Below are positions 9,431 to 54,570 of a DNA stretch of 64,000 nucleotides, piece by piece; positions within the stretch are counted from its first letter, which is position 1, and each line of letters begins with the position of its first letter. The translations under genes and the position numbers were made by a program. The notes under the pieces were generated by a model, which saw only the letters and a list, made by a program, of their open reading frames with translations, made no database searches and was not told where the DNA came from. Location: contig JAUVRX010000001.1 of assembly GCA_030597375.1 (NCBI GenBank), positions 54,818 to 118,817 on the forward strand. The letters are read 5' to 3'. The DNA is from Acidobacteriota bacterium (GTDB taxonomy: Bacteria; Acidobacteriota; Thermoanaerobaculia; Multivoradales; JAHEKO01).

Positions 9431-10615
9431 TCAGAGAGTGGCGATCACCGCGTCGGTCAGTTGAATCGTCGAGGCGGCTCCCTTCGAGATTACGTCGGCG
9501 CCGCCCGGTAGCATCCTCATGTCGTAGGCCCGAACCTTCCCGGCCTTGACGACTGCGGCAACGGCATCGCGGATCTGTCCCGCCTTCGCCGTCTCTCCGA
9601 TGTGGTCCAGCAACATTGCCGACGCCAAGAACATGGCGGTCGGGTTGACGATGGGTGGGTCGAGCTCGAAGTACTTGGGGGCCGAGCCGTGCGTCGGCTC
9701 GAACACCGCCACTTCTTCACCGATGTTGCCGGAGGCCGCGAAGCCGAGACCGCCGACCAGTCCGGCGAAGCCGTCGGAGACGATGTCGCCGAACAGATTG
9801 CCGGCGACGATGACACCGTAGTTCTCCGGATTCTTGGTGAGCCACATCATCTGGGCATCGATGTTGGTCGACCAGAGCTCGATGTCGGGGTAGTCGGCAT
9901 GGATCTTCTTGGCCTCCTCCTCCATCATCCCCGAGGTCTCGCGCAGCACATTGGGCTTCTCACAGACCGTCACCGACTTGTAACCGTGCTTGCGGGCATA
10001 TTCGAATCCGGCCGTGATTATCCGGCGGCAGGCCCCGCGGGTGAAAATCCGAGTGCTGATCGCCAGGTCCCCGGGAGGCGTATCGGCGAAAGCCTTGAAC
10101 TTGGAATGCTGGTTCAGGGCCTGGAGGACCTGCTCAGGAGGGTCGGTCCACTCGACACCGGCGTACATGCCCTCGGTATTCTGGCGAAAAATGACCGCGT
10201 CGACGGTCGGTTCCATGAACCCTCCATCTGCGGTTCGTCGAATGAAGTTGAGCGGATTGCCCGGAAACGAACGGCACGGCCGAATACAGATGTCGAGTCC
10301 GAAACGCTGTCGCATGGAGACGATGGGGCTGAAATACACGTAGCCCTTGTCCTGCAGCTCCGGCTTCAACTCAGCTGCGGCTTGCGGCTTTGGCTTCGAG
10401 GTAATCGCTCCGAACAGACCCAGCTTGTGCTGTTCCAGCAGCTCAACCGTCCTGTCCGGCAGGGCGTTGCCCTCGTTGATCCAGAACTCCCATCCGATTT
10501 CCCCCTGCACATAGTCGGCATCGAATCCGACAGCATCCAGGACGCGCAGCGCCTCCGGTAGAACGATCTTTCCGATGCCGTCACCCGGCATCACAACCAC
10601 GGTTGGTTTGGCCAT
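9431..10615 (-). CDS. isocitrate/isopropylmalate dehydrogenase family beta-decarboxylating dehydrogenase (Icd/LeuB/HICDH-like)
   Basis: 394 aa. The N-terminal VVVMPGDGIGKIV and the motif NLFGDIVSDGFAGLVGGLGFAASGNIG are both diagnostic of this family. Substrate cannot be assigned from sequence alone. Confidence 0.8.
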   Translation of the reverse strand: MAKPTVVVMPGDGIGKIVLPEALRVLDAVGFDADYVQGEIGWEFWINEGNALPDRTVELLEQHKLGLFGAITSKPKPQAAAELKPELQDKGYVYFSPIVSMRQRFGLDICIRPCRSFPGNPLNFIRRTADGGFMEPTVDAVIFRQNTEGMYAGVEWTDPPEQVLQALNQHSKFKAFADTPPGDLAISTRIFTRGACRRIITAGFEYARKHGYKSVTVCEKPNVLRETSGMMEEEAKKIHADYPDIELWSTNIDAQMMWLTKNPENYGVIVAGNLFGDIVSDGFAGLVGGLGFAASGNIGEEVAVFEPTHGSAPKYFELDPPIVNPTAMFLASAMLLDHIGETAKAGQIRDAVAAVVKAGKVRAYDMRMLPGGADVISKGAASTIQLTDAVIATL

Positions 10616-14967: not shown

Positions 14968-17394
14968 GTGGCCACAGTCAAAGGGCTGGACGCCCAGGAG
15001 CTATACCGCCATTGCGACTTCGGCGATCTCCGTTTCGACACCACCGATGATCTCGGTGACCTACAAGGCCTTCTCGGTCAGCCCCGCGCTGAAGCGGCGA
15101 TCGAATTCGGCATCGGCATCGAGCATGAGGGCTACAACATCTTCGCCTTCGGGCCAACCGGTACCGGCAAACATACAGCGGTCAAGCAGTATCTCGAGGG
15201 AAAAGCTGCCACTGCGGAGATACCACCCGATCTCTGCTATGTGAACAACTTCGCAGAGCCTCACAAACCCAACATTCTTCAGCTTCCAGCCGGCCGTGGG
15301 AGCGAGCTCAAGAAAGCCATGCGCGGGCTTCTGGAAGAGGTCCGCACGGTTCTCGAGACGGCTCTGGAAAGCGAGGACTACCAGGCGCGCAAGCAGGTCC
15401 TCGAACAGCAGTTCGAGGAGCGGCAAGGCAAGACCCTGTCGGATCTCGGCGACAAGGCCGGCAAGAGGGGCCTGGCCCTGGTCCGTACGCCTGTCGGCAT
15501 CGTCTTCGCGCCGATGGGCGAAGAGGAGGTTCTCTCGCCCGAGGAGTACCAGAAGCTTCCAGACAAGAAGCGGGAGCGACTCGAGAAGGAGATCGAACGG
15601 CTCAAGGAGGAGCTTCAGAAGGTTCTTCGCCAGTTTCCGCGGTGGCAACGGCAGGCCAGCGAGGCGTTTCGCAAGCTCAACCTCGAAGTGAGTCGGTTCG
15701 CCGTCAATCCCCTCTTCGACGAGCTGCGCGAACAGTTCGAAGGGCTGGACCAGGTGCAGGCCTTCCTGGACGCGGCGGAGAGCGACATCGTGGAGAAGGC
15801 CGGTCGCCTCGGTTCCCGTGGTGAGAAAGCAGCTTCCATGGCCATGGACGAGATCTCGGGAGGGGACGACACCGAGAAACCGAGCCTGCGTCGGTATCGG
15901 GTCCATCTCATCGTGGATCATCGAGAGACCACCGGCGCTCCGGTGGTCTACGAAGACAATCCCACCTACCAGAACCTCTTCGGACGTGTCGAGCACATAC
16001 CGCAGATGGGCGCCGTGGTGACGGACTTCAATCTAATCAAGGCCGGGGCCTTGCACCGAGCCAACGGTGGGTACCTGCTGGTAGACGCTCTGAAGGTCCT
16101 GCAACAGCCCTATACCTATGAGGGTCTCAAGAGGGCCCTGCAATCGAGGAAGATCAAGATCGAGTCCCTGGGCGAGGCGATGAGCTTGATCAGCACCTAC
16201 TCGCTCGAGCCGGAGCCAGTCGACCTGGCGGTCAAGGTCGTTCTGCTGGGCAGCCCGATGGTCTACTACCTGCTGCCCAATCTGGATCCGGAGTTCGGTG
16301 AGCTGTTCAAGGTCGGCGCCGACTTCGCCGGAGTCATCGAGTGGAACGACGAAAACCAGGAGCTCTATGCCCGGCTCATCGCCAAGCTGGTGCGGGAGGA
16401 GGGTCTCCGTCCCTTCGATCGGGCAGCGGTAGCACGGGTCATCGAGCACAGCGCCCGCTCGGTCGGTGACGCCCAGAGGATGTCACTCCTCATGAGCCGC
16501 ATACTGGACCTCATGCGAGAGGCGGACCACTGGGCCGGGAATGGCGACAGACCCTCAGCGACCAGCGAAGATGTCCAGCGCGCCATCGACAATCGGGTCT
16601 TCCGAAGCGATCGCCTGCGCCAAAGAACCCAGGAGGAGATCGAGCGCCGCACCGTACTGTTGGACACCGAAGGTGAGCAGATCGGCCAGGTGAACGGGCT
16701 GTCGGTCATCCAGATGGGTGACTTCGCGTTCGGCAGGCCCAGCCGCATCACGGCCCGTGTTCGACTCGGCAAGGGCGAGGTGGTGGACATCGAGCGTGAG
16801 GTCGAGCTCTCCGGGCCGCTCCACTCCAAGGGTGTGCTGATCCTGACCGGGTTCCTGGGAGCGCGGTATGCGCCCCGCCGGCCCCTCTCTCTCTCCGCCA
16901 GCCTTGTATTCGAGCAATCCTACGGCGGTATCGACGGCGACAGCGCTTCTTCGGCCGAGCTCTACGCCCTGCTCTCCGCCATCGCCGGGGTGCCCATCCG
17001 CCAGTCTCTGGCCGTCACCGGCTCGGTCAACCAACTGGGGCAGATTCAAGCCATCGGCGGCGTCAACGAGAAGATCGAAGGCTTCTTCGACGTCTGCTCC
17101 CGCCGCCGCCTGACCGGTGACCAGGGAGTGCTGATCCCGGCTTCCAATACCCAACACCTCATGCTGCGCCAGGACGTGGTAGAGGCCGTCAGGGAGGGCA
17201 AGTTCCACATCTTTCCAGTGGAGACCGTGGACCAGGGAATCGCGTTGTTGACCGGCTGGAGCGCCGGTGAACCCGGAGAAGATGGAGGCTATCCCGAAGG
17301 CAGCCTGAACCAACGAGTCGTCGAGCGTCTCGAGCAGCTGGCGGCCGACGCGAAAGCCTTCTCCACCCCCCCGTTCATGAACAATGCGGGCTAA
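14968..17394 (+). CDS. Lon-like AAA+/S16 protease with large helical insertion (LonC-type / Lon-related ATP-dependent protease)
   Basis: ORF 14788..17394 trimmed to an in-frame GTG start (VATVKGLDAQELY; RBS agggggatgg). The first ~60 aa of the listed ORF look non-coding. Walker A (GPTGTGKHT) is followed by a ~180-aa charged coiled-coil insertion, then NGGYLLVD (Walker B region) and a C-terminal Lon S16 domain (GPLHSKGVLILTGFLGARYA...ASLVFEQSYGGIDGDSASSAELYALLSAIAGVPIRQSLAVTGSVNQLGQIQAIGGVNEKIEG). Confidence 0.8.
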   Translation: MATVKGLDAQELYRHCDFGDLRFDTTDDLGDLQGLLGQPRAEAAIEFGIGIEHEGYNIFAFGPTGTGKHTAVKQYLEGKAATAEIPPDLCYVNNFAEPHKPNILQLPAGRGSELKKAMRGLLEEVRTVLETALESEDYQARKQVLEQQFEERQGKTLSDLGDKAGKRGLALVRTPVGIVFAPMGEEEVLSPEEYQKLPDKKRERLEKEIERLKEELQKVLRQFPRWQRQASEAFRKLNLEVSRFAVNPLFDELREQFEGLDQVQAFLDAAESDIVEKAGRLGSRGEKAASMAMDEISGGDDTEKPSLRRYRVHLIVDHRETTGAPVVYEDNPTYQNLFGRVEHIPQMGAVVTDFNLIKAGALHRANGGYLLVDALKVLQQPYTYEGLKRALQSRKIKIESLGEAMSLISTYSLEPEPVDLAVKVVLLGSPMVYYLLPNLDPEFGELFKVGADFAGVIEWNDENQELYARLIAKLVREEGLRPFDRAAVARVIEHSARSVGDAQRMSLLMSRILDLMREADHWAGNGDRPSATSEDVQRAIDNRVFRSDRLRQRTQEEIERRTVLLDTEGEQIGQVNGLSVIQMGDFAFGRPSRITARVRLGKGEVVDIEREVELSGPLHSKGVLILTGFLGARYAPRRPLSLSASLVFEQSYGGIDGDSASSAELYALLSAIAGVPIRQSLAVTGSVNQLGQIQAIGGVNEKIEGFFDVCSRRRLTGDQGVLIPASNTQHLMLRQDVVEAVREGKFHIFPVETVDQGIALLTGWSAGEPGEDGGYPEGSLNQRVVERLEQLAADAKAFSTPPFMNNAG

Positions 17395-17425
17395 GGGCTC
17401 GAGGGCGTAGGGGCGTAATCGGTGC
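17380..17425. repeat. mosaic short repeat (family B core tcatgaacaatgcgggcta + agggcgtagggg module) overlapping the Lon-like stop codon
   Basis: ttcatgaacaatgcgggctaagggctcgagggcgtaggggcg; compare 29404, 40630 and 49864 for the core, and 40651 and 61046 for the gggcgtagggg module. Confidence 0.35.
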
Positions 17426-17456
17426 CGGGGCGGCGAAGGGGTCGGCAGCTGAAGAG

Positions 17457-19154
17457 TCAGAACCCGGCCGCCTGGCCGTCCTTGCGGGACTCGGAGGCGC
17501 CGTAATAGACGCCCTGGTCGGCATCGAAGAGGATGGCCTGGTAACCCCCGTAAGGCCCGACGTCCCAACCCACGGAGTGACCTCGCTCCACCAACTCACG
17601 GATCGTCGCATAGGGAAAACCGGACTCCAGAGTCACCGTCCCCCCGTCGATCATCTTCTCTCCGGTCGGCTGAGAGGAGCCCTGATGCAGAATCCTCGGG
17701 GCGTCGCCCGCCTCCTGCAGGTTCATCCCGAAATCGACCATGTTGATGACGATCTGGGCATGGGCCTGGGGCTGCGTCGCACCTCCCATCACGCCGAAGC
17801 TCATATAGGGCTCCCCATTCCTGGTGACGAAGGCCGGAATGATGGTGTGGAAAGGGCGCTTGTGGGGCTCATAGGTGTTGAACTGCCCCTCCTCGAGGGT
17901 GAAGAGCTCCCCACGATCCTGGAGGATGAAACCCAGGCCGTCCGGTGACAGTCCGGTACCCATTCCGCGGTAGTTGGACTGGATCAGGGAGACCATGTTG
18001 CGGTCCTTGTCGGCCACGGTCAGGTAGATCGTGTCTCCCTCTTGAAGCGCCGGGTTGCCCGCTTCGAAGCTCTCCGCCGCGCGCTCCGGATCGATGAGTC
18101 GACGCCGCCGAGCCGCATACTCCTTGGAGATGAGCTCTTGAACCGGAATGTCATTGAAATCGGGGTCGGCGTACCAGCGGGCCCGATCCTCGAAGACCAG
18201 CTTCTTGGCCTCCACGAAGTAGTGGACGTAGTCGGCGCTGCCGAATCCCATGGCCGACAGATCGTAGGACTCGAGGATGTTCAGGATCTGCAGCGCCGCG
18301 ATGCCCTGGCCATTGGGGGGCAGCTCCCAGACCTCATAGCCGCGGTAGTCGGTAGAAACCGGCTCCACCCATTCGGAGGTGTGCTCCGCCAGATCTCGAT
18401 AGGAAAGGAAACCGCCCTCACGCTTCATGAACGCATCGATGGCGAGAGCGACGTCTCCCTTGTAGAAGACATCCCTGCCGCCCTCGGCGATCTGCTGGAG
18501 CGTCTTCGCCAGAGCCGGATTGCGGAAGATCTCTCCCTTCCGAGGCGCCCTTCCACCCGGCATGAACACCTCCCGGAAACCGGCCCAGACCTCGAGGGTC
18601 GGGACGCTTCGCTGCCAGTAGTAGGCAATCAATTCACTGACCGGAAAGCCCTCTTGCGCATATCGGATCGCCGGCGCCAGGACCTGCTTCATGGGCAGCT
18701 TGCCGAAGCGCTCGTGCAGCTCGAACCAACCGTCCACCGCACCCGGCACGGTAACCGGCAAGGGGCCATGGCTGGGGATCGACTCCAGACCCTGTTCCTG
18801 GAGCCACGCCAAGGTGAGCGAATAAGGCGAACGCCCACTGGCATTGAGCCCGTACAGCTTCCGGCTTTCGGCATCCCAGACGATGGCGAACAAGTCGCCA
18901 CCGATGCCGTTCCCGGTGGGCTCCACAAGGCCCAACATGGCGTTGGCTGCGATCGCTGCATCGACCGCACTGCCGCCCTGCTTCAGGATGTCGAGGGCCA
19001 CCTGCGTAGCCAGCGGCTGGCTGGTAGCCGCCATGGCATGCGGGGCGATCACCTCCGATCGCGTCGCAAAGGCCTTGCCGGTGATGCGGTCGGCGGCGCT
19101 CAGACTGACGGCCACAAGGGCGACACTTCCGATCAGTAGCAGGACTCGCTTCAT
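17457..19154 (-). CDS. ggt: gamma-glutamyltranspeptidase (secreted)
   Basis: ORF 17457..19673 trimmed to MKRVLLLIGSVALVAVSLSA (signal peptide; RBS gagggtga). GGT motifs are present: TGNGIGGDLFAIVWD and TIYLTVADKDRNMVSLIQSNY with the autoprocessing Thr region, then GGATQPQAHAQ. Confidence 0.9.
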   Translation of the reverse strand: MKRVLLLIGSVALVAVSLSAADRITGKAFATRSEVIAPHAMAATSQPLATQVALDILKQGGSAVDAAIAANAMLGLVEPTGNGIGGDLFAIVWDAESRKLYGLNASGRSPYSLTLAWLQEQGLESIPSHGPLPVTVPGAVDGWFELHERFGKLPMKQVLAPAIRYAQEGFPVSELIAYYWQRSVPTLEVWAGFREVFMPGGRAPRKGEIFRNPALAKTLQQIAEGGRDVFYKGDVALAIDAFMKREGGFLSYRDLAEHTSEWVEPVSTDYRGYEVWELPPNGQGIAALQILNILESYDLSAMGFGSADYVHYFVEAKKLVFEDRARWYADPDFNDIPVQELISKEYAARRRRLIDPERAAESFEAGNPALQEGDTIYLTVADKDRNMVSLIQSNYRGMGTGLSPDGLGFILQDRGELFTLEEGQFNTYEPHKRPFHTIIPAFVTRNGEPYMSFGVMGGATQPQAHAQIVINMVDFGMNLQEAGDAPRILHQGSSQPTGEKMIDGGTVTLESGFPYATIRELVERGHSVGWDVGPYGGYQAILFDADQGVYYGASESRKDGQAAGF

Positions 19155-24220: not shown

Positions 24221-24691
24221 ATGCCGCTACAGAAGCTGCGAGAGTTTCTCGACCAGAACAGTGTCAAGTACGTCAGTGTCAGCCATTCACCCGCCTACAC
24301 CGCCCAGGAGATCGCTGCCTCGGCCCACATACCGGGTCAGGAGCTGGCCAAGACGGTCATGGTGAAGCTCGACGGCGAGATGGCCATGGCCGTGCTGCCT
24401 GCCTCCTTCAAGGTGGATCTCGAGCAGCTCCGCTCTGCCGCCGGCGCGACCGAAGTCGCTCTGGCCACGGAAGATGAGTTCAGGGGTCTTTTCCCCGGCT
24501 GCGAGCCTGGAGCGATGCCACCTTTCGGCAATCTCTGGAACATGTCGGTCTTCGCTTGCGAGACCCTGGCGGAGGACGAGGAGATCGCCTTCAACGCCGG
24601 GTCCCACACGGAGCTGGTGAAACTCGCGTTCGTCGACTTCGCCAGGCTGGTGAACCCCAAGGTGACTCGCTTCTCCACCACGGAATCCTAG
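24221..24691 (+). CDS. YbaK/EbsC (ProX)-type aminoacyl-tRNA deacylase domain protein
   Basis: 156 aa with RBS ggaaggagag. The fold is YbaK-like (KTVMVKLDGEMAMAVLP...). Its stop codon lies inside the left arm of the repeat element. Confidence 0.65.
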   Translation: MPLQKLREFLDQNSVKYVSVSHSPAYTAQEIAASAHIPGQELAKTVMVKLDGEMAMAVLPASFKVDLEQLRSAAGATEVALATEDEFRGLFPGCEPGAMPPFGNLWNMSVFACETLAEDEEIAFNAGSHTELVKLAFVDFARLVNPKVTRFSTTES

Positions 24692-24855
24692 GAGTCTGCG
24701 CGGCAGAAAGCTACCCTACTGTGAAAGCGGTGTCGGCGGCCCAGATTCGACCGGGTCCTCGTTACGTAGCACCACTACGCGCCTCGGATCCGGTCGAATC
24801 TGGACTCACCGCTCCACTTTCTCGCGACGGGCGTTTCTACCGCGCAGACTCCTAG
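24688..24855. repeat. 168-bp palindromic MITE/REP-like element (family A full copy): 67-bp arm + 35-bp loop + diverged inverted arm, with terminal IR ctaggagtctgcgcgg
   Basis: Read directly. The outer 15-bp inverted repeat is taggagtctgcgcgg / ccgcgcagactccta. The inner inverted repeat is cccagattcgaccgg / ccggtcgaatctgg. The left arm matches the 48352..48418 copy 67/67 (reverse complement) and the 49882..49948 copy 66/67. Confidence 0.6.
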
Positions 24856-24977
24856 CCCGCATAGCTTGACATCGTCATGTACGAGTCAAGCTCCGTGGGG
24901 CGGTGCCGACACCCCTCGCGACGGTTCCCCAGAGACCTGGCGTCAGCGGACCGGTGGCCGGCTAGAATAGCCGTCCG

Positions 24978-28154: not shown

Positions 28155-29261
28155 ATGACACCGATTCCGATCGCCTTCTTCGTCTCCTCACACGGATTCG
28201 GACATGCCGCACGCAGCGCCGCCGTCATGGAAGCGCTCCACGATCAGAGCCCGGAGGTCAGCTTCTCGATCTTCACTGGCGTCCCCAGGTGGTTCTTCGA
28301 GGATTCGATGAACGCACCCTTCGAGTACCTGAGATGCCGCACCGATGTCGGGCTCGTCCAGACGACCCCCATGGAGGAAGACCTCGCAGCGACGATCGAT
28401 GAGCTCTCGAGCTTTCTTCCCCTTTGTCGTCAGCTGATCACGGGTGCGGCAGACGAGGTTCGAAGCAGAAAATGCCGCCTCATCGTCAGCGATATCTCTC
28501 CCCTCGGCATTGCCGTGGCGGCCGAGCTCGGTCTGCCATGCGCCCTGGTCGAGAACTTCACCTGGGACTGGATCTATCGTGCCTATCTCGAAGTCGAACC
28601 GCGGTTCGATTCCTTCATCGCCGAGATGCGTCGCCTCTACTCGGCGGTACACCTGAGAATTCAGGCCGAGCCCTTCTGCGCAGCGGTGCCGGGTTCGGCC
28701 CAGGTTGCACCGATCAGTCGATCGGTTCGGGAGCCGCCAACCGTGATTCGTCAGCGCTTGCAGCTGGCTGGCGACTCACCGTTCGTGCTGGTAACCATGG
28801 GAGGTTTCCCGGCCACCTACCGTTTCCTCGAGCGCCTTCATCGGTATCCCGAGATCACCTTCGTGATCCCGGGCGCCAGTGACGCCATGCACCGGGATCA
28901 GAATCTGATCCTGTTACCCCATCGCACGACGTTTCAGCACGCCGACCTGGTGGCCGCTGCCGACATGGTGGTTGGCAAGCTCGGCTACAGCACCCTGGCG
29001 GAAGTTTTCCAGGCCGCGACACCCTACCTGTTTTTGCAGCGGCGCCGTTTCCCCGAATCGCCGGCCCTCGCCCGATTCGCCGAGCAGCGCCTGGTGAGTG
29101 GAGAGATCACCGAGACCGAGCTCGAAGCGGCCGACTGGCCGAGCCGACTCCCAGCCATGGAGACCGATCGCCGATCGCCCGCCACAGAGCCGTCCGGCTC
29201 GCTTCAAACGGCCGATCTTCTGCTGGATCTGCTTCAGGGTCGCTGCCCGCATTATTCATGA
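28155..29261 (+). CDS. glycosyltransferase (GT1/GT28-like UDP-glycosyltransferase fold)
   Basis: 368 aa. The N-terminal SSHGFGHAAR motif is typical of MGT/GtfA-like glycosyltransferases. The C-terminal half is a nucleotide-sugar binding Rossmann domain. Confidence 0.65.
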   Translation: MTPIPIAFFVSSHGFGHAARSAAVMEALHDQSPEVSFSIFTGVPRWFFEDSMNAPFEYLRCRTDVGLVQTTPMEEDLAATIDELSSFLPLCRQLITGAADEVRSRKCRLIVSDISPLGIAVAAELGLPCALVENFTWDWIYRAYLEVEPRFDSFIAEMRRLYSAVHLRIQAEPFCAAVPGSAQVAPISRSVREPPTVIRQRLQLAGDSPFVLVTMGGFPATYRFLERLHRYPEITFVIPGASDAMHRDQNLILLPHRTTFQHADLVAAADMVVGKLGYSTLAEVFQAATPYLFLQRRRFPESPALARFAEQRLVSGEITETELEAADWPSRLPAMETDRRSPATEPSGSLQTADLLLDLLQGRCPHYS

Positions 29262-29428
29262 CCCCGCGTGCAAATTGTGGAAAGCGTCCGTCAGATCTGG
29301 TCACCCGCAGGAAGGAGCACTGGAGGCAACCTTGCGGGTTGTTGAGGAGCGACGAGCGAGGTCGGCCTGAGGTGGCGGGCGATCTCGACCAGATGCCGTG
29401 GGGCTCATGAATAATGGGGGCTAGGAGG
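29244..29428. repeat. inverted pair of family B core motifs flanking the GT / repeat-protein convergent intergenic region
   Basis: gcccgcattattcatga at 29244..29262 supplies the GT stop codon. tcatgaataatgggggctagg at 29404..29424 is its near reverse complement about 140 bp away, and is preceded by ggcgggcgatctcgaccagatgccgtgggg. Confidence 0.4.
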
Positions 29429-40475: not shown

Positions 40476-40628
40476 CTCTCACCTGTTGCCTCTGGCAGGG
40501 GTAACCGTGCCGGATTCTTCGAATCGGGCCGACCTTCGCTCGATCGCCAGCCAACGAATCACGCGATCTTATCGTGAAACCACACGGGAGGGCGGAGGCT
40601 GCGGCAGATGATCGAAGACCGGTCCTGG

Positions 40629-40700
40629 CCCGCATTATTCATGCGGGCCAAGGGCGTAGGGGTGGACGCGACCGGGCGTTCCTTCGGCCGGTCTTTGGGG
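40629..40700. repeat. mosaic short repeat copy in the rnd/leuS intergenic region (hairpin cccgcat-tattc-atgcggg + agggcgtagggg + ccttcggccggtctttgggg)
   Basis: Read directly; the modules recur at 17380, 61046 and 61061. Confidence 0.4.
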
Positions 40701-46137: not shown

Positions 46138-48273
46138 TTATCCGAAGAAGGCGAAGGTGGTGAGCACATCCTGAAGCCACACCAGCCAACGCGACGCCCA
46201 CTTGATGGCCGGAGCCCGGTCCGGTGGCTCCAGAGCTCGGCTGTTGTTGGAAGGTCGGACATCCAGCAGGAGCACCCTGTCGGGGTCGACGACCGCGTAT
46301 GCCAACTTCGAGGTCTGCTCCACCACGATCCGCTTCCACCGGTCCCGTCCGTCCCATCGATAGCGGACTTCTTCTCCATCCTCGAACGCCATGAGGACCT
46401 CGACCGGGAAGACACCGCCGCCGAATCGGCGCACTACGACCTCCGATCGGTACAGGGTGTCGGAGTCCTCCCCTTCAGCAGAGGATCCGTCTTCGTCCTC
46501 TTCCTCCGAGGCCCCGGCAACCAGGGTCAGCTCACCTTCGGCCGACACCCAGCCCTCGACCGCCGCAGGCTCGCTGGAAACGGAGAGCACCGCGTAGTCG
46601 AACACCTCAGAGCTGTGGTAGACCTGCTCGAAGAACCAGGAAAGATCCTGGCCCGCCACCTCGCTGAGAGTGTCGAAGAAGTCGTCCGGCTGCGGATGTC
46701 GGTATTTCCAGTCATGGAAGAACCGCGACATGGCAGGCTGCAAGACCTCCCAGCCGAGGTACCGTTCCAGGGTAGCCAGCCAGAGGGCCGTCTTGCCATA
46801 GCTGAGAGCACCGCCGGCGCCTGGAAAGTAGAGATAGGAGGGAGTACTCTGCCGATCGATGGTCCCCAGCTCACGATAACCACGAAGTCGATCATCGAAG
46901 AGGCTTCCGGGATAGCCGAACCCATCCAGCAGCAGTGGGAAGAAGCCCCGTCCTTCGGTTCCTGGTGGCTTGAAATACCGACGCACAACCTTCTTCGGGG
47001 GGTAGGCCTGATCGTAGGTGCGAATCGTCGAGAAGGTGTTCAGTCCCTCGTCCAGCCAGGCATCCTCGAACTCGTTGTTCCCCACCAGTGCGTACCAGAA
47101 CTGGTGGCCTGCTTCGTGAATCGTCACTCCCTCCGGTGAGCCACCTCCGTACGGATTGAACAGACGAGTGCCGGCCGTGAAGAGGGTCGGATACTCCATG
47201 CCTCCGGCGCCACTCCCGTAGGCCGGATCCACGATCGTGACGTGGCCATAAGGGTAGGGACCGTACCAGGTGCCGTAGTACTGGAGAGCGGCCTTGGTGG
47301 CGTGAAAATGGCGCTCTGCCTGACCGAGGTGTTCGGGTTGGATCAGCAGGCGAAGATTCACCGGCGGCAAGCCCTCGTGCTCGAACCGGTCGGTCAGAAC
47401 CAGATAGTCCGGGCTGGCGGTCCAGGTGAAGGAATGGACATCCTCCTGGATGTGTCGATGGGTGACGGTACCGTCGGCGTTCTCGACCGACTCCACCAGG
47501 AGCCCGGTCGCGCCCAGGACGTATTCGCCCGGCAGGGTGATGGCGACGTCGTAGATACCGTAGTCGGAGAAATACTCGGTGCTCGAGTGGTACTGGTGGC
47601 AATTCCAGCCATCACCTTCGAACACACCCAGCTTCGGGAACCAATGGGCGATGAAGAAGTAATGGCCTCGAAAGCCGGTTCGGGCGAACGTCCGGGGGAT
47701 CTTCGCTCTCCATGAGAGCTCCACGGTGACGGACTGACCCGGTTCTACCGGGGTCGGCAGCGTCATCACCATGACGGTTCGATCGTCGGGATTGCCGTCG
47801 TCGGGAGAGGCGAATCTCGTCATCGGTTCGAGGTCCGCCCCTTCGATCCCTTCGGTGGGCGACAACCGGACGGAATCCACTTCCAGGTAGCTCCAGTCCT
47901 CCTCCATGACTTCGGCGCCGAGGCTGCTTCTCTCGCGGATCTGATCCTCCTGCATCCAGGTACTGCGGCTGTTGCGCCAGCCATTCCAATACAGATGGAA
48001 CCAGAGCTCATCGGTGGCCGCATCCTGGATGTTGCGCCAGACTACGGTCTGTCGGCCCTCGAGCGTTTTCGCGACCGGATCGAGTCGCACCTCGATGGTG
48101 TAGTTCGCATTACGGGGAGAGTCGGCCGACGGCGAACCGCCCCGGCCCGTGGTTTCAACCTGCTGGCCTGAAACCTGGCCCGACAGCGCCAGCAGCCAGA
48201 CAGAGCACACCCCGATCGCCCGTCGAATCGTCGACCGAAGATGACCAGTGGTGGTTTGAGAAAGGACTCTCAT
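46138..48273 (-). CDS. M1-family zinc metallopeptidase (aminopeptidase N-like), secreted
   Basis: ORF 46138..48294 trimmed to MRVLSQ...AIGVCSVWLLALSGQVSGQ (signal peptide). It contains HEAGHQFWY ... NEFEDAWLDEGLNTF (HExxH + E gluzincin) and a GAMEN-like GGMEYPTL. Confidence 0.85.
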   Translation of the reverse strand: MRVLSQTTTGHLRSTIRRAIGVCSVWLLALSGQVSGQQVETTGRGGSPSADSPRNANYTIEVRLDPVAKTLEGRQTVVWRNIQDAATDELWFHLYWNGWRNSRSTWMQEDQIRERSSLGAEVMEEDWSYLEVDSVRLSPTEGIEGADLEPMTRFASPDDGNPDDRTVMVMTLPTPVEPGQSVTVELSWRAKIPRTFARTGFRGHYFFIAHWFPKLGVFEGDGWNCHQYHSSTEYFSDYGIYDVAITLPGEYVLGATGLLVESVENADGTVTHRHIQEDVHSFTWTASPDYLVLTDRFEHEGLPPVNLRLLIQPEHLGQAERHFHATKAALQYYGTWYGPYPYGHVTIVDPAYGSGAGGMEYPTLFTAGTRLFNPYGGGSPEGVTIHEAGHQFWYALVGNNEFEDAWLDEGLNTFSTIRTYDQAYPPKKVVRRYFKPPGTEGRGFFPLLLDGFGYPGSLFDDRLRGYRELGTIDRQSTPSYLYFPGAGGALSYGKTALWLATLERYLGWEVLQPAMSRFFHDWKYRHPQPDDFFDTLSEVAGQDLSWFFEQVYHSSEVFDYAVLSVSSEPAAVEGWVSAEGELTLVAGASEEEDEDGSSAEGEDSDTLYRSEVVVRRFGGGVFPVEVLMAFEDGEEVRYRWDGRDRWKRIVVEQTSKLAYAVVDPDRVLLLDVRPSNNSRALEPPDRAPAIKWASRWLVWLQDVLTTFAFFG

Positions 48274-48351
48274 GTCGGCAAGGGCCCCCCGCATTGAATG
48301 CCCCCTGCAGTGTAGGCCATTGTATGGGCAGGCACTCCAAGCGGCAAACCC

Positions 48352-48418
48352 CCGGTCGAATCTGGGCCGCCGACACCGCTTTCACAGTAGGGTAGCTTTC
48401 TGCCGCGCAGACTCCTAG
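48352..48418. repeat. family A repeat, 67-bp arm copy, reverse orientation, upstream of agcS
   Basis: Exact reverse complement (67/67) of the left arm of the 24688..24855 element. Confidence 0.55.
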
Positions 48419-48455
48419 CCCGGATAAGATCCTGGCGCGTCGAAACGAGCCAACC

Positions 48456-49805
48456 ATGAGTCAGTGGATCCAGAGCGCCAGCGATTTCCTGTGGGGCTTG
48501 CCGATGCTGGGCCTCGTCCTCGGAGTGGGGATCTACCTCATGGTCCGCCTCCGTGCCGTGCAGATTCGGCAGTTCGGCCAGGCCCTCCGCGACCTTTTTC
48601 AACCTCCAATCACAGACGCCTCCTCGGGTGACATCTCGCCCTTCGGTGCCCTGATGACTGCCGTGGGCGGCATCGTGGGAAACGGCAACATCGCTGGTGT
48701 TGCCACCGCCATCACCTCGGGCGGGCCTGGGGCTCTCTTCTGGATGTGGGTCAGCGGCCTGGTGGGCATGGGAACCATGTTTGCCGAGTCGGTCCTGGGG
48801 ATCGTCTACCGGCGGAAAGGCGATGACGGTCTCTTCCTGGGTGGTCCCATGTACTACCTCGAGAGTGCCCTCGGCTGGCCCGCGATCGCGTCCTTCTTCG
48901 CCATCGGCATGGCCTTGAAGACGCTGCTGGCGACGACCACCGTGCAGAGTAACTCCATGTCCCTGGTGGCGGCCAGTGAGCTGGGCTGGAGCCCGATGTT
49001 CACCTGCTCTCTGGCGGCTTTGGTGACGGGTGCCGCTGTGGTCGGTGGAGTTCGCTCCATCGCTCGGGTCTCCAAGATCCTCTCCCCGCTCATGGGCCTC
49101 CTCTATCTGGCTGGAGCTGCGGGCGTGCTATGGGCATTCCGCTCGGCACTGGCGGCCTCGTTGGCTCTGGTGATGGAGCATGCCTTCACGCCGATGGCTG
49201 CCGGCGGTGGATTCCTCGGTGCCAGCGTCCGCCAGGCGTTTCGATTCGGTCTCGCCCGCGGCGTCTACTCCAACGAGGCCGGTACCGGCTCGGTACCGAT
49301 CGCACACGCCTCGGCCCGAACCGACGATCCGGTCGCCCAGGGGAGGATCGCCATGCTCGGGGTGTTTCTCGACACCATGGTGGTCTCGAGCGCTACCGGC
49401 CTCGTTCTGCTGGTCACCGGAGCCTGGCGCTCCGGGTTGGAATCGACGACCCTCACGGCGCAGGCATTCTCCGAGGGACTGGGACCCATGGGTGGCACCG
49501 TTGTCCTGGCAGCCTCACTGCTGTTCGGCCTGTCGACACTCATCACCTGGGCCTTCTACGGCGAGCAATGTGCGGTCTATCTCTTCGGCCCCAAGGCCAG
49601 GGGACCCTATCGTCTGCTCTACTGTGTCGCTATCCTGGGCGGCTCCCTGGCAGGCGCCCAGGCTATCTGGGCCTGGGCTGACCTGCTCAACGGCATCATG
49701 GCCATCCCGAATCTCGTCGCATTGGCTCTGCTCGCCGGCCCGGTAGCACGGCGACTGGCCGGGGCCTCGGGAGACAGCCAGCTCGATTCCGCCACCTCTG
49801 CCTGA
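48456..49805 (+). CDS. agcS: sodium:alanine (amino acid) symporter family (AGCS) transporter
   Basis: 449 aa and polytopic. AGCS-family blocks are present: GPGALFWMWVSGLVGMGTMFAE and YSNEAGTGSVPIAHASA. Confidence 0.85.
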   Translation: MSQWIQSASDFLWGLPMLGLVLGVGIYLMVRLRAVQIRQFGQALRDLFQPPITDASSGDISPFGALMTAVGGIVGNGNIAGVATAITSGGPGALFWMWVSGLVGMGTMFAESVLGIVYRRKGDDGLFLGGPMYYLESALGWPAIASFFAIGMALKTLLATTTVQSNSMSLVAASELGWSPMFTCSLAALVTGAAVVGGVRSIARVSKILSPLMGLLYLAGAAGVLWAFRSALAASLALVMEHAFTPMAAGGGFLGASVRQAFRFGLARGVYSNEAGTGSVPIAHASARTDDPVAQGRIAMLGVFLDTMVVSSATGLVLLVTGAWRSGLESTTLTAQAFSEGLGPMGGTVVLAASLLFGLSTLITWAFYGEQCAVYLFGPKARGPYRLLYCVAILGGSLAGAQAIWAWADLLNGIMAIPNLVALALLAGPVARRLAGASGDSQLDSATSA

Positions 49806-49960
49806 GGCGGCGGGCGATCTCCACAGTGGACTGTGGGCATGACAGTCCACTAGATGCCGTGAGGATCATGAACGATGCGGGCTAGGAGTCTGCGCGGCAG
49901 AAAGCTCCCCTACTGTGAAAGCGGTGTCGGCGGCCCAGATTCGACCGTGCAGACTCCTAG
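49803..49960. repeat. composite repeat downstream of agcS: family B motif (ggcgggcgatctc...agatgccgtgaggatcatgaacgatgcgggctagg) interrupted by a 27-nt perfect hairpin, then a family A short copy (49882..49960) with 12-bp terminal IR
   Basis: Read directly. The segment 49803..49880 matches 29381..29425 except for an inserted palindrome agtggactgt-gggcatg-acagtccact (49825..49851). The segment 49882..49948 matches the family A arm 66/67 and is closed by gcagactcctag. Confidence 0.55.
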
Positions 49961-49998
49961 AGTATCCTTGGGTCCGATCAGAAGGGAGTAGAAGAACC

Positions 49999-51081
49999 AT
50001 GCGAGCCGACAGCCAGCTGTTCCTGCAGGAGTTCCTCCAACTTTTTGGGGACAACCCTTATGTTCACGCCGCGGTACTCGTGGTCGTCTCTCTGGTGGCC
50101 GCCAAGATGGTGGACTGGGTCGTGATTCGGTTCGTGGCGCGTTGGGCGAAGAAGAGCCGCACCGACATCGATGATCGTCTGGTCGCCAATCTTCACAAGC
50201 CCCTCTTTCTGACCCTCCTACTTTTCGGCCTCTGGCTCGCTCTGGCCCAGCTCGAGCTGCCCGAAGGCGTCGCCCTCTTCTCGACGAGATCCCTGAAGAC
50301 CATCGTCCTGCTTCTCTGGGGGGGCTTCGCGCTCAGGAGCTGCTCCATTCTTCTCGGCCTGCTCAGCCACATGGAACGGCGCTTCGCCGTCGTTCAACCC
50401 AGAACCGTCCCCCTGTTCGACAATGTTACGAAGATCCTGGTGGTGGGCGGTGCAATCTACTTCCTGTTCCTGATCTGGGGCGTCGACGTGGGAGCCTGGC
50501 TGGCGGGGGCCGGCATCGTCGGCATCGCCGTCGGCTTCGCGGCGAAGGACAGCCTGGCCAATCTTTTCGCGGGCCTCTTCATCGTTGCCGACGCCCCCTA
50601 CAAGATCGGTGACTTCATCGTTCTCGATACCGGCGAACGGGGGCGCGTCTCACAGATAGGCCTGCGCAGCACCCGCCTGCTGACACGGGACGACATCGAG
50701 ATCACGGTGCCCAACGCTGTGATCGCCAACGCCAAGATCACAAATGAGAGCGGCGGTCCATCCGAAAAGGAGCGAGTACGGGTTCCGGTGGGAGTCGCCT
50801 ATGGCAGCGATATCGATCGGGTCCGAGAGGTACTCCTGGAGGTAGCTCACTCCAACGACTCGATCGACACCAATCCAGAGGCACGAGTGCGCTTCCGATC
50901 GTTTGGCGATGCGGGTCGCAAGTTCGAGCTCCTGGGCTGGATCCACGAGCCGGTTCTCAGGGGCCAAGTGATCGACGCCCTGAACACCGAGATCTATAAG
51001 CGCTTCGCGGCAGAGGGCATCGAGATTCCCTATCCAAAGAGGGATGTCTACCTGCACCAGGCACCGGATTCGGATCGCTGA
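49999..51081 (+). CDS. mechanosensitive ion channel (MscS family)
   Basis: ORF 49915..51081 trimmed to MRADSQLFLQ (RBS aagggag). The first 28 codons of the listed ORF translate the repeat element. Three TM segments are followed by the MscS pore and beta-domain (ANLFAGLFIVADAPYKIGDFIVL...GRVSQIGLRSTRLLTRDD). Confidence 0.8.
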   Translation: MRADSQLFLQEFLQLFGDNPYVHAAVLVVVSLVAAKMVDWVVIRFVARWAKKSRTDIDDRLVANLHKPLFLTLLLFGLWLALAQLELPEGVALFSTRSLKTIVLLLWGGFALRSCSILLGLLSHMERRFAVVQPRTVPLFDNVTKILVVGGAIYFLFLIWGVDVGAWLAGAGIVGIAVGFAAKDSLANLFAGLFIVADAPYKIGDFIVLDTGERGRVSQIGLRSTRLLTRDDIEITVPNAVIANAKITNESGGPSEKERVRVPVGVAYGSDIDRVREVLLEVAHSNDSIDTNPEARVRFRSFGDAGRKFELLGWIHEPVLRGQVIDALNTEIYKRFAAEGIEIPYPKRDVYLHQAPDSDR

Positions 51082-51159
51082 GCCTGGACCGAAGCGATCC
51101 TGCAGCCTGTCGTTTTCGAAGAAGGATTCCAGAGCACCGACTTCCGAGGGAATCTTGCC

Positions 51160-51840
51160 ATGACACTACGGCTCGAGCCGCTGAGTGAGTATCGCCAGTA
51201 CCCAATCGACAAGATGCGTCAGAGAACGACCGATTTCCTGGCTGAGATGCGTCGGAGGCGGTCCGTCCGTCACTTCTCTTCGCGACCGGTACCACGCGAT
51301 ATCGTCGAGGATTGCATCCGCGTCGCCATGACGGCGCCGAGCGGCGCCAATCGTCAGCCCTGGCACTTTACGCTGGTTGGGGATCCAGAGGTCAAGCACC
51401 GGATTCGGGTCGCCGCCGAAGAGGAGGAGCGCGGCTTCTACGACGGCCGGGCCCCGGAGGAGTGGCTCGAGGCCCTGGCTCCACTGGGCACCGATGCGCA
51501 CAAGCCCTTCCTCGAGACCGCTCCCTATCTCGTCGTCATCTTCGCCCAGCTCCACGGAGAGGAGACCGATGGGGCCAAGATGAAGCACTACTATGTGAAC
51601 GAGTCGGTGGGAATCGCCACCGGAATGTTGATCACGGCCCTGCACCACGTCGGCCCTGCGAGCCTGACGCACACCCCCGCACCCATGCGCTTCCTGAGCG
51701 AGATTCTGGGGCGTCCGGCCCACGAGAAGCCATACCTGATTCTCGTCGTCGGATACCCCGAGAGCGATACCAAGGTGCCGGTTCTTTCCAAGAAGAGCTT
51801 CGAGCAATCCTGCGAGATCATCGACCTCGACATCGGGTGA
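51160..51840 (+). CDS. nitroreductase-family flavoprotein (iodotyrosine deiodinase / NADH oxidase-like)
   Basis: 226 aa; the motif [38 protein letters not shown] is the canonical nitroreductase N-terminal motif. Confidence 0.8.
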
Positions 51841-52124
51841 CCAGCAGGAGTCCAGCAAATCCTTGAGTTTTTCGCCGTGGATCGTGTTAGAATCTCGCCA
51901 TCTCGAAGGATCAGGGGTACGCCCGACGAGGACTTTCGATTCACTCAACGGCAGTACGCCAACTCGAGGGTCGATTGGCCCTCCTGAACCAAAGAGGTCG
52001 ATGGACCAAGAAAAGCAGTCACTCATACGCCGTCGACAGGAAGCTGTCGGCAAATCGTTGACCTGGGGGGAGAACAGGGTCCGATAGTGACCCCTTCCCG
52101 ATCAAGAAACCTTGAGGAGTGGAA

Positions 52125-52418
52125 ATGAACAAGACGGAAATGGCTGAGAAGCTCGCCAAGAACAGTGACCTGTCGCAGGCGAAGGCTCTGGAGATTGTCT
52201 CCATGATCTTCGACACCAAGCCTGGAACTGGCATCATCGCCATCGAGCTGGATGCCGGTGGCAAGGTCCAGATCCCCGGCTTCGGCACCTTTGGCTCGAA
52301 GAGTCGCGCCGCCCGGCAGGGCCGCAACCCCGCCACCGGCCAGACCATCATGATCGCCGCCAAGAAGTACCCGTTCTTCAAGCCCGGTAAGGGCCTCAAG
52401 GACCGGGTCGCCGACTGA
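52125..52418 (+). CDS. hup: HU/IHF-family nucleoid-associated DNA-binding protein
   Basis: 97 aa starting MNKTEMAEKLAK (RBS gaggag, 5-nt spacer). The beta-arm signature is GFGTFGSKSRAARQGRNPATGQTI. Confidence 0.9.
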   Translation: MNKTEMAEKLAKNSDLSQAKALEIVSMIFDTKPGTGIIAIELDAGGKVQIPGFGTFGSKSRAARQGRNPATGQTIMIAAKKYPFFKPGKGLKDRVAD

Positions 52419-52463
52419 CGGGTCCAGGCTCTCAACGGCATTTTTCAGAAGCAAATCATGAGG

Positions 52464-52500
52464 CCCCGTCGCGGACTTCTCCGCGGCGGGGTTTGTTCTG
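52464..52500 (+). terminator. Rho-independent terminator after hup
   Basis: The hairpin ccccgtcgcgg-acttct-ccgcggcgggg is followed by tttgttctg. Confidence 0.6.
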
Positions 52501-52578
52501 TCCGATGCCGGAACCTTGTAGCCAAGTTCACTCCAAGGAAAGTTGTTACACTCCCTCAGCCAACAGGCGATCCTGAAG

Positions 52579-54570
52579 ATGAGTGAAGTCGGCAAGACCA
52601 TCCTGCACTACCGCATTTTGAAGAAGCTGGGCGAAGGCGGTATGGGGACCGTCTATCTCGCCGAGGACACCAAGCTCAACCGCAAGGTCGCCGTCAAGTT
52701 CCTACCCGTGGAGATGGCTTCCGACCCCACTCGCTTGAAACGATTCGAACGGGAAGCGAAAACGGTCGCCAGCCTCAACCACCCCAACATCGTCACCCTG
52801 TTTGCCGTCGAGGAACACGACGGAGTCCCATTCCTGGTCATGGAATTGGTAGAGGGCGAGCCTCTCGGTGAGGTCATTGCCGAAGGGGGAATGGAAGTCC
52901 AGCGGTTCTTCCAGATCGCCATCCCCATGACCGATGCCCTGGCCGCCGCTCATGCCAGCGGCATCACCCACCGTGACCTAAAGCCCGGCAACATCATGCT
53001 GACGGCCGATGGCCGGGTCAAAATCCTCGACTTCGGACTGGCGAAGCTCCTCGAGGAGCCCGAACAGGATGCTACCGCCACTCTGTCCACCCAGGCATTG
53101 ACGCGAGAAGGCAGCGTCCTGGGCACCGTCCCCTACATGGCTCCCGAGCAGCTCAAGGGAACCGGACCCGATCCTCGATCGGACATCTTCTCCCTGGGAA
53201 TCGTTCTCTACCAGATGATCAGTGGGAGGCGACCCTTCAAGGGCGCCACCTCCGCCGAGGTCATCAGCTCGATCCTGCGGGACAGTCCACCGCCGGTGAC
53301 CGATCTCAAGATGGATCTACCTCCCCACCTCGGGAGAATCGTCAAACGCTGCCTCGAGAAGGACGTCTCACGACGTTATCAGTCGTCTGCCGACCTTCGA
53401 AATGAGCTCGAGGAGCTCAAGCGGGAGATCGAGACCGGCCAGATGTTCGAGACCAAGGCACGGCCGGCAGTCCTGCCCGAGCCGAGGTCACCCAGGTCCA
53501 GAACGAAGCCACTGCTGGCCATCCTGGCTGTCGTCGTCATCGTAGCCGCGGCCGCCCTTTTCCTTCTACGAGCCCAACACCCAGCCTCGACTCCAGAACC
53601 TCAGAGTGCGGCTCCTCCCCCTGCCGTCACGGAGACCGTCGCTGTGCTCCCTTTCAAGAGCCTGGGGGGAGAGGGTGGTGACGATCTGACGAACGGTCTG
53701 GCCGAGGAAATCACCAGCAAACTCACCGATCTCGAAGATCTCCAGGTGGTCTCCACTGCGACTGCGGCGCGCCATGCCCGCGCCGAGACCGGTACCCAGT
53801 TGATTGGTGAGCGGCTCGGAGCAACCTACCTAGTCCTGGGTACCGTCCAGTGGGACGACAGCGACACGCGCAATCCGCAGGTCCGGGTGACGCCCCAACT
53901 CGTTCGGGTCGCCGACGATATCCAGATCTGGTCCGAGAGTTTCGACCGGTCAGCGGCCCAGCCTCTCGAGGTCCAGTCCGAGATTGCCGGAATCGTCGTG
54001 CGGCAGGTGGGGGTGTCGCTTCTGGGTTGGGAGGGAGAGGAGGTGTTGCAGGCCCTCCTGGAGGACCAGGAGGTCGACCTCCCGATTCCAGAATCAGAGC
54101 CGACAAGATCCGCCAGCGCAACAGGTGGCGTCGGCGCTGCAAGCTCTCAGCCACCAGCAGGCTCGGAAGCCGGCGATGCCTCCAGTCGACAACAGGTCAT
54201 CGTCACCGAGACCGAACTGCAGAGTCAGCCATCTGCCGGGGATCCGGCTGTCGGACCGGTAACTCTGCACATTCAATTCGCCAGCCGAATGCCCGAAGGC
54301 GTACTGACCCTTTATGCCGACGAGAAGCAGATTCTCAAGGAGCAGTTCCGCTACCAGAAGAAGTCCCGCCTCCTGAGGCCAAAGCGCTCTCTGGGCGGCT
54401 TCGACACCACCCGTGAGATCTCGTCATCCACCCGCACCCTGAGGATCTACCTCCTGGTGGAAGGAGAATCCAAGCTCACTACCGTCACAACCGACCTTCT
54501 GGCGGCAGAAGAGCGGACGCTGACCATCGAACTGTTTCGCAAGGGGACGATCGAGGCCAGCCTCGAATAG
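52579..54570 (+). CDS. transmembrane Ser/Thr protein kinase with extracytoplasmic TolB-N-like sensor region
   Basis: ORF 52543..54570 trimmed to ATG (MSEVGKTILHYRI). Hanks kinase motifs are present: GEGGMGTVY, VAVK, HRDLKPGNIM, DFGLA, APE. A TM segment (LLAILAVVVIVAAAALFLL) precedes a C-terminal ~300-aa extracellular domain. Confidence 0.85.
   Translation: MSEVGKTILHYRILKKLGEGGMGTVYLAEDTKLNRKVAVKFLPVEMASDPTRLKRFEREAKTVASLNHPNIVTLFAVEEHDGVPFLVMELVEGEPLGEVIAEGGMEVQRFFQIAIPMTDALAAAHASGITHRDLKPGNIMLTADGRVKILDFGLAKLLEEPEQDATATLSTQALTREGSVLGTVPYMAPEQLKGTGPDPRSDIFSLGIVLYQMISGRRPFKGATSAEVISSILRDSPPPVTDLKMDLPPHLGRIVKRCLEKDVSRRYQSSADLRNELEELKREIETGQMFETKARPAVLPEPRSPRSRTKPLLAILAVVVIVAAAALFLLRAQHPASTPEPQSAAPPPAVTETVAVLPFKSLGGEGGDDLTNGLAEEITSKLTDLEDLQVVSTATAARHARAETGTQLIGERLGATYLVLGTVQWDDSDTRNPQVRVTPQLVRVADDIQIWSESFDRSAAQPLEVQSEIAGIVVRQVGVSLLGWEGEEVLQALLEDQEVDLPIPESEPTRSASATGGVGAASSQPPAGSEAGDASSRQQVIVTETELQSQPSAGDPAVGPVTLHIQFASRMPEGVLTLYADEKQILKEQFRYQKKSRLLRPKRSLGGFDTTREISSSTRTLRIYLLVEGESKLTTVTTDLLAAEERTLTIELFRKGTIEASLE

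Follow-up and report, generated by a model that had tools for sequence, protein, structure and literature searches.

The gene agcS lies in a 64-kb stretch of DNA (the window) from a bacterium of the Thermoanaerobaculia, with an inverted, nearly identical repeat on either side of it, and the question raised by this locus is whether the repeats move the gene, flip or regulate it, or only happen to be its neighbors. In the preliminary description the arrangement was called transposon-like, with a mobilizable cassette and a pair of REP-like elements as the two possibilities. The features of the locus and the reference copy of the repeat are as follows.

24688..24855, plus strand: intact 168-bp family-A MITE, the reference copy, inserted in a CTAG which holds the stop codon of a YbaK-like gene.
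46138..48294, minus strand: M1-family peptidase gene (Pfam Peptidase_M1), the left neighbor, transcribed away from agcS and conserved as a neighbor in relatives.
48319..48347, minus strand: promoter-like site TTGCCG-17-TACAAT for the peptidase gene, with a -10 invariant in the alignment of relatives.
48351..48418, minus strand: solo arm of a family-A MITE (ISKpn6-type, IS1182 family), with terminus GCAGACTCCTAG at 48418 facing agcS.
48456..49805, plus strand: agcS, sodium:alanine symporter family (Pfam Na_Ala_symp, E = 4e-112), a resident gene.
49807..49881, plus strand: right-end remnant of a family-B MITE with an IS1380-type terminus (...TGAACGATGCGGG followed by CTAG), aligning to the B element of locus L121 and to a flank in locus L133.
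49825..49851, no strand assigned: 27-nt perfect hairpin (10-bp stem, 7-nt loop), unique in the window and located inside the family-B remnant.
49882..49960, plus strand: 79-bp family-A mini-element, an internal-deletion derivative with CTAG on both sides.
49999..51081, plus strand: gene of an MscS-type mechanosensitive channel (Pfam MS_channel_2nd and MS_channel_3rd), the right neighbor.

The inverted pair itself was confirmed: segments 48353–48425 and 49875–49947 are 97% complementary over 73 nt, with 1449 nt between the arms, and the core arm is 98–100% identical among its copies over 66–68 nt. The core arm was present at three loci of the window (24688–24755 on the plus strand, 48351–48418 on the minus strand and 49882–49947 on the plus strand), the reverse complement of the second being identical to the first at 100% over 68 nt and the third being 98% identical to it. 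Searches with 25- and 37-nt pieces of the arm returned three matches each in the window versus none in 100 shuffles. The left copy ends at 48418, 37 nt ahead of the agcS start codon (ATG 48456), and the right copy begins at 49882, 76 nt behind the stop codon at 49805, close to the 38 and about 80 bp given originally. Two further details of the preliminary description also stood: the right copy has its own perfect 12-nt terminal inverted repeat (CTAGGAGTCTGC / GCAGACTCCTAG, extending to 21 nt at 86%), and a 27-nt perfect hairpin precedes it at 49825–49851. Read on the plus strand, the left copy has an R-type end (...GCAGACTCCTAG) at 48418 and the right copy an L-type end (CTAGGAGTCTGC...) at 49882, so that the CTAG termini of both copies are directed at agcS and the gene lies outside both elements. 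The nearest L-type end to the left of agcS is the one at 24688.

The nature of the arm was revealed by the copy at 24.7 kb, in which a 34-nt loop separates the arm from a diverged inverted partner and CTAG borders the whole element on either side; the DNA fold of 24680–24880 reached -56.1 kcal/mol (z = -7.3). An alternative end at 24863, giving a 176-bp element, was rejected: the extra 8 nt are a similarity of the flank, and the true span is 24688–24855. The 22-nt terminus CTAGGAGTCTGCGCGGYAGAAA was found at no fewer than 120 loci of the genome collection, distributed over the Acidobacteriota (Thermoanaerobaculia, Vicinamibacteria), the Burkholderiales (Massilia, Janthinobacterium, Rubrivivax) and the Gammaproteobacteria (Marinobacter, Tamilnaduibacter, Vreelandella, Granulosicoccaceae). 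The elements bounded by it fell into size classes of 37–71 bp, about 167 bp (the commonest), about 279 bp and 1532–1640 bp. Members of the longest class have termini identical to the 22-nt termini of family A and encode a 438–452-aa protein, which scored 381.8 bits against the NCBIfam model of the IS1182 transposase (cutoff 270) and also matched Pfam DDE_Tnp_1 and DUF772; such a full-length copy is present in another MAG of the Thermoanaerobaculia (L001).

ISKpn6 is an insertion sequence of the IS1182 family which adjoins blaKPC in Tn4401. The Janthinobacterium copy showed 69% DNA identity to it. On plasmid pBIC-1a, where ISKpn6 spans 1546 bp, it is bordered by CTAG on each side, and its termini differ from those of family A by one or two mismatches. 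The terminal inverted repeats of ISKpn6, CTAGGAG[T/C]CTGCGCGGCAGA...TCTGCCGCGCAGACTCCTAG, are the same as those of the window elements, and an IS1182-family transposase is encoded by the full-length relatives that share them. From this sharing of termini it follows that the arm is half of an ISKpn6-type (IS1182-family) MITE, and the MITE origin considered in the preliminary description was thereby substantiated. Unlike ISKpn6, the elements in the window (168 bp, 79 bp and 68 nt) are non-coding derivatives whose length falls far below that of a transposase gene. Inside, they are not related to the insertion sequence and contain instead a long hairpin kept across phyla by paired changes, and they reside in a Thermoanaerobaculia bacterium rather than on an enterobacterial plasmid. 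No homologue of the cognate transposase was found in the 64-kb window (best tblastn E = 3.8), and the elements presumably depend for their mobilization on a DDE transposase of the IS1182 family supplied in trans from another part of the genome. The terminus string also occurs inside a blaKPC-3 cloning primer adjoining ISKpn6, in a paper on carbapenem resistance. A description of the about-167-bp MITE was not found in the searchable literature, including queries for IS1182 together with MITE or CTAG; this family of hairpin MITEs with ISKpn6 termini in Acidobacteriota and Proteobacteria is undescribed but ordinary.

An end-to-end alignment was obtained for 15 elements of about 167 bp taken from different phyla, all of which kept one long hairpin. 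In this alignment 92.9% of the cells were paired, versus 36–43% when the partners were slid by 1–3 columns, and changes on both sides were seen in 29 of the 59 pairs, values reached by none of 500 shuffles. Very few G-U intermediates occurred, and several internal, unpaired motifs were invariant. Such a pattern points to palindromy being maintained at the level of DNA, which is unusual in extent but of a kind known for MITEs. Comparable small elements are the Correia elements of Neisseria, ERIC, RUP and Nezha: about 100–300 bp long, non-coding, intergenic and hairpin-prone, they have terminal inverted repeats, generate a short duplication at a specific short target and include internally deleted variants. 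Family A is similar to them in size class, absence of coding capacity, termini, target duplication, intergenic position, hairpins and deletions, but its parent is an IS1182 element (ISKpn6-like), its target is CTAG rather than TA, and evidence for a promoter, a terminator or RNase III processing is lacking in its case; a sequence relationship to these elements would not be expected. A candidate likeness of another kind, that of GGTCGAATC in the arm to a tRNA T-arm, had suggested a tRNA-like sequence or attachment site, and was dropped after ARAGORN had detected no tRNA or tmRNA genes and Rfam at gathering thresholds no family in the 64-kb window.

The target site was established from an empty site. 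In two related loci (L135 and L136, with pdxH 95% identical) the sequence reads GGACTC CTAG CGCGCATAGC, i.e., CGCGCAT follows a single CTAG, while the window has CTAG-164 bp-CTAG at the same position, a 4-bp duplication of CTAG; this empty-site evidence concerns the 24.7-kb copy only. The CTAG used there includes the TAG stop codon of the YbaK-like gene. In other genomes abutting elements have one CTAG in common (L031). At the insertion point upstream of agcS no CTAG was visible in the alignment of either L121 or L122. A recurrent flank, TGARWAATSCRGG followed by CTAG, had given rise to the idea of an extended target motif, since the empty site at 24.7 kb already reads CTAG-CGCGCAT. For the long motif this preference was rejected, the flank being the terminus of a second, IS1380-type MITE family. 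A weak preference for CTAG followed by CSCGSAT is possible.

A metagenome scan with an arm-internal 23-mer recovered four contigs, all of them from one metagenome (PVMS01). The PVMS01 strain (L131) is 99% identical to window positions 49038–52995 and has kept the mini-element, and three further full copies, 98.8% identical, are located at unrelated loci in PVMS01. In a sister lineage, a 16-nt terminus stands alone at a locus which is empty in the window, and all three of the window loci are free of family-A elements there. The family is thus present in multiple copies and differs in presence and absence between close relatives. The PVMS01 copies and strain, together with the solo terminus of the sister lineage, therefore indicate that family A was active recently and left debris, as does the 98–100% identity among the window copies.

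The orthologues of agcS are 84–97% identical, and an exact-protein look-up with the AgcS of the window returned no identical record. Nine loci from several samples (L122–L130), with agcS 88% identical, share the order RNase E/G, ADH, hypothetical protein, M1 peptidase (minus strand), agcS (plus strand), MscS (plus strand), nitroreductase and HU. A tenth (L121, agcS 97% identical) is a short contig limited to agcS and the first part of the next gene, and the beginning of the latter can be aligned with the MscS start of the window. The 16-nt terminus, allowing up to 3 mismatches, had no match in these ten loci. In the alignments the upstream arm and the downstream block appeared as lineage-specific insertions in otherwise alignable spacers: the arm at 48351–48418 and the mini-element are both absent from L121 and from L122–L130, and the agcS–MscS spacer measures 44 nt in the nine 88% loci versus 193 nt in the window. 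The true MscS start is ATG 49999, with GAAGGGAG ahead of it and aligned with the start in relatives; the true start of the M1 peptidase may be ATG 48273. The gene agcS is an old resident, not cargo.

Both flanking copies are incomplete. The mini-element on the right consists of the arm and the last 13 nt of the other terminus, and its junction lies in TTCGACCG / TTCTACCG, two stretches identical at 7 of 8 positions in the full element, with 89 nt lost between them; it would have been formed by a deletion between these short repeats. It still folds strongly (-44.6 kcal/mol, z = -4.9), and the segment preceding it reaches -31.5 kcal/mol. In the left copy the match to the full element stops after 68 nt; both the inner part and the other terminus are gone, and this copy therefore lacks an outer end. 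The inner boundary of the left copy falls on a patch which is ancestral (CCCACGGACGAACCT in L121) and similar to CCCGGTCGAATCT of the element, which suggests that a similar deletion removed the other arm together with about 41 nt of the flank. Immediately beside this inner boundary, the promoter-like site of the peptidase gene is intact.

The segment between agcS and the mini-element belongs to the second family, B, which comprises 183–185-bp MITEs and 1725-bp full-length copies of the form CTAG CCCGCATTWYTCA ... TGARWAATSCRGG CTAG; the 472-aa ORF of the full-length copies is a transposase of the IS1380 family (NF033539, 390 bits, cutoff 180). Family B is akin to family A in being bounded by CTAG and in accumulating in the same spacers, where the two have CTAGs in common, but has different termini (CCCGCATTWYTCA...) and a different transposase family. 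A full B copy is located in the window at about 29244–29424, and in L121 a full 183-bp B element (1549–1731) directly follows the agcS stop codon. In the window, the left ~128 nt of the B element were probably deleted between a GCCTGAGG repeat at the agcS stop and a second GCCTGAGG repeat within the element. The 99%-identical L131 has the 27-nt hairpin, while L121 and L133 lack it in their copies of this segment; from this comparison the hairpin appears to be an additional insertion or expansion inside the B remnant.

These results are best explained if the repeats flanking agcS are decayed MITE remnants which landed separately beside a resident gene and then lost sequence by deletion, a reading to which we assign a probability of about 90%. 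Family-A MITEs insert at the tetranucleotide CTAG and duplicate it, and would have entered three spacers in separate events: the one behind the YbaK-like gene, the one separating the M1 peptidase gene from agcS, and the one separating agcS from mscS. The last of these insertions would have used the CTAG ending an older IS1380-type MITE remnant. The copy at 24.7 kb has stayed intact, while both copies flanking agcS would have decayed as stretches between short similar sequences were deleted, so that a solo arm with one end remains on the left and the 79-bp mini-element on the right. The gene would then happen to lie between two remnants, which as a pair are unable to move it. In this scheme we infer the order of events and the microhomology-based deletion from the junctions and alignments.

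It is mildly unusual that, of the three family-A loci in 64 kb, two lie beside the same gene: with three random insertions among the 41 spacers of the window, an adjacent pair was obtained in about 14% of the trials, and this chance is higher with a restricted set of targets or with new CTAGs provided by earlier elements. The tetranucleotide CTAG occurs 26 times in the 64-kb window versus about 220 occurrences expected from base composition; it is thus 8.5-fold depleted, and targets are therefore scarce. Nine of the 41 spacers contain a CTAG, including those created by the elements. Given the about 14% chance and the scarcity of CTAG, the bracketing of agcS is not statistically remarkable. The locus also illustrates the accumulation and decay of CTAG-targeting elements from two IS families at the small number of CTAGs in a CTAG-depleted genome.

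A composite transposon, in which the inverted copies are the ends of an agcS-carrying unit moving between genomes, would account for a near-identical inverted pair bracketing a single 1.35-kb gene, and the repeats do bear genuine termini of the type recognized by a transposase. It is nevertheless extremely improbable. The termini face agcS, no L-type end is found leftward nearer than 24688, and the left copy has no outer terminus, so that outward ends enclosing a cargo were not found; nor does agcS come and go with the repeats as a unit. Direct repeats at the outer boundaries are missing in the comparison of 48343–48350 with 49961–49968, and no outer target duplication was seen (left boundary GCAAACCC, right boundary AGTATCCT). 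The GC content of agcS is 0.65–0.66 versus 0.62 in the flanks, and its GC3 of 0.793 lies inside the 0.72–0.82 range of its neighbors and is typical of the window. Finally, ten related loci (nine 88% and one 97% identical, the latter as a short contig) have agcS at the same syntenic position but no repeats; conserved order without the repeats had been set in advance as the observation that speaks against a transposon, and the transposon reading is refuted on this ground. In Tn10- and Tn5-type composite transposons inverted copies of a transposable element also lie on both sides of a gene, but here the outer ends are missing or face the wrong way, an outer target duplication is absent, and the enclosed gene is syntenic without repeats in relatives. 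Taken together, the locus gives no evidence for horizontal mobility of agcS. An invertible segment, with recombination between the inverted repeats flipping agcS relative to a promoter as in phase variation, fares just as badly, although inverted repeats of 66–73 nt and 97–100% identity do flank the gene: agcS had one orientation in 11 of 11 related loci, including the 99% strain which carries the repeat, the annotated neighbors contain no recombinase domain, and the repeats are already explained as transposon ends. The REP-like alternative of the preliminary description was likewise abandoned, since REP and BIME units are 20–40-nt imperfect palindromes associated with a RAYT transposase and devoid of IS-type terminal repeats, and the arm is half of a 168-bp element with IS1182 terminal repeats and a CTAG duplication.

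More room is left for an effect on expression. Remnants co-opted for regulation might uncouple agcS from mscS or stabilize the 3' end of the agcS mRNA through the hairpin-rich insertions (the B remnant, the 27-nt hairpin and the 79-nt mini-element); in addition, the upstream arm might alter the divergent promoter region, and the two arms might pair to a 66–73-bp duplex across the transcript. The 44-nt gap between agcS and mscS in the 88% relatives looks like that of an operon, and 149 nt of strongly folding sequence have been added here; the 99% strain keeps the arrangement, and the arm adjoins the conserved peptidase promoter without disrupting it. It is plausible that these 149 nt would modify the coupling of two genes which are seemingly co-transcribed in relatives. 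Against co-option speak the absence of a U-tract terminator and of a promoter-like site inside the elements, and the absence of any Rfam family at gathering thresholds, an E-value scan of 24600–24950 giving only weak, generic microRNA-precursor hairpin matches far below gathering. Furthermore, the remnants look like products of neutral decay, and at this position a sister lineage contains other debris. Regulatory co-option is therefore considered unlikely, if much less so than a transposon or a switch, and a regulatory role maintained by selection would be slightly less likely still. A more elaborate version, in which the arms and hairpins would insulate agcS and form a long-range duplex acting as an RNase III or stability switch, is equally doubtful, and so is the separate idea that the conserved hairpin is needed for ISKpn6-like mobilization; if the hairpin were indeed needed, it would constitute a constraint on mobilization beyond recognition of the terminal repeats.

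Another idea, that of a shared 5' leader or promoter, came from the position of the flanking arms, which in forward reading lie about 51–58 nt upstream of the outward-facing peptidase and MscS genes. It was rejected: the genes of the relatives lack the arms, the third copy is followed by its inverted partner, and the arms contain no promoter-like site.

With decayed MITE remnants as the preferred reading, the locus represents ordinary MITE decay in a Thermoanaerobaculia genome, and its biological import is modest. The practical consequences concern annotation and assembly. As claimed originally, the repeat contaminates a listed ORF, with the GTG start at 49915 falling within it (VKAVSAAQIRP), and such repeats should be masked as MITE debris when ORFs are called. 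Many of the copies carrying CTAGGAGTCTGCGCGGYAGAAA are located at contig ends, showing that family-A repeats break assemblies.

CTAG is scarce in the window: base composition predicts 220 occurrences and 26 are present (about 8.5-fold under-represented), and five of the 26 are bounds of family-A elements, the hairpin MITEs with ISKpn6-type (IS1182-family) termini. With so few sites available, two CTAG-targeting IS families are in competition for them, and their elements stack on one another's ends. Of the five family-A termini that the window contains, three have the motif CSCGSAT adjoining their CTAG:

24855-24862, CSCGSAT beside CTAG
48418-48425, CSCGSAT beside CTAG
49875-49881, CSCGSAT beside CTAG

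In one case a relative's empty site (locus L135, approximately 9886-9895) already has the motif, and in another the motif belongs to the terminus of a family-B remnant. A weak extended target preference of family A for CSCGSAT beside CTAG is possible.

The family-B MITEs are about 183 bp long, with the termini CCCGCATTATTCATGA...TCATGAATAATGSGGG and CTAG at both bounds. An IS1380-family transposase is encoded by their full-length relatives, which are 1725 bp long and occur in other Acidobacteriota. Within the window there is a single full copy together with several solo ends, and the family-B remnant downstream of agcS includes a perfect hairpin:

29244-29424, full family-B copy
17378-17394, family-B-type end
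40625-40641, family-B-type end
49869-49885, family-B-type end
49825-49851, 27-nt perfect hairpin, AGTGGACTGT GGGCATG ACAGTCCACT

The corresponding agcS-downstream spacer of the sister lineage (L121, the 97% relative, 1549-1800) carries a full family-B MITE with TTAG flanks and, at the place of the family-A mini-element of the window, a further 35 nt, TTAGGGGTCCGGAAGTTGGCAACTGGCCAGGCGGG. The 27-nt hairpin occurs only once in the window and is shared with the 99% metagenome strain, while the other family-B copies are free of it; it is an insertion or a palindromic expansion within the family-B remnant.

A single long hairpin is conserved in the roughly 167-bp family-A MITE from Acidobacteriota to Proteobacteria, as compared among loci L002, L019, L020, L037, L043, L052, L057, L059, L073, L076, L091, L100, L106 and L133 from other genomes and the window copy at 24688-24855. 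Both sides had changed in 29 of the 59 pairs and, in the same set of elements, G-U intermediates were almost absent; several internal positions were invariant, such as CTG in alignment columns 32-34, TCG in 72-74 and TCGC in 135-138. The terminal repeats and CTAG bounds of these environmental Acidobacteriota elements are the same as those of ISKpn6 (L138, K. pneumoniae pBIC-1a, NZ_CP022574.1, 504-2049), the neighbour of blaKPC-2 in Tn4401. ISKpn6-like transposases could in principle mobilise the family-A MITEs.

A presence/absence difference of family A in the reverse direction, i.e., present in the sister lineage and absent from the window, is found in the spacer that separates the gene for Lon protease from that for gamma-glutamyltranspeptidase: L135 has a solo 16-nt family-A terminus there (2569-2584), and the window has unrelated sequence at this position (17400-17460).

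The longest ORF of the M1 peptidase, the left neighbour of agcS, begins at window position 48294, and the gene callers of the relatives placed the start further into the gene. The ATG at 48273, which would give a plausible signal-peptide N-terminus (MRVLSQ...RRAIGVCSVWLLALSG), is a candidate for the true start.
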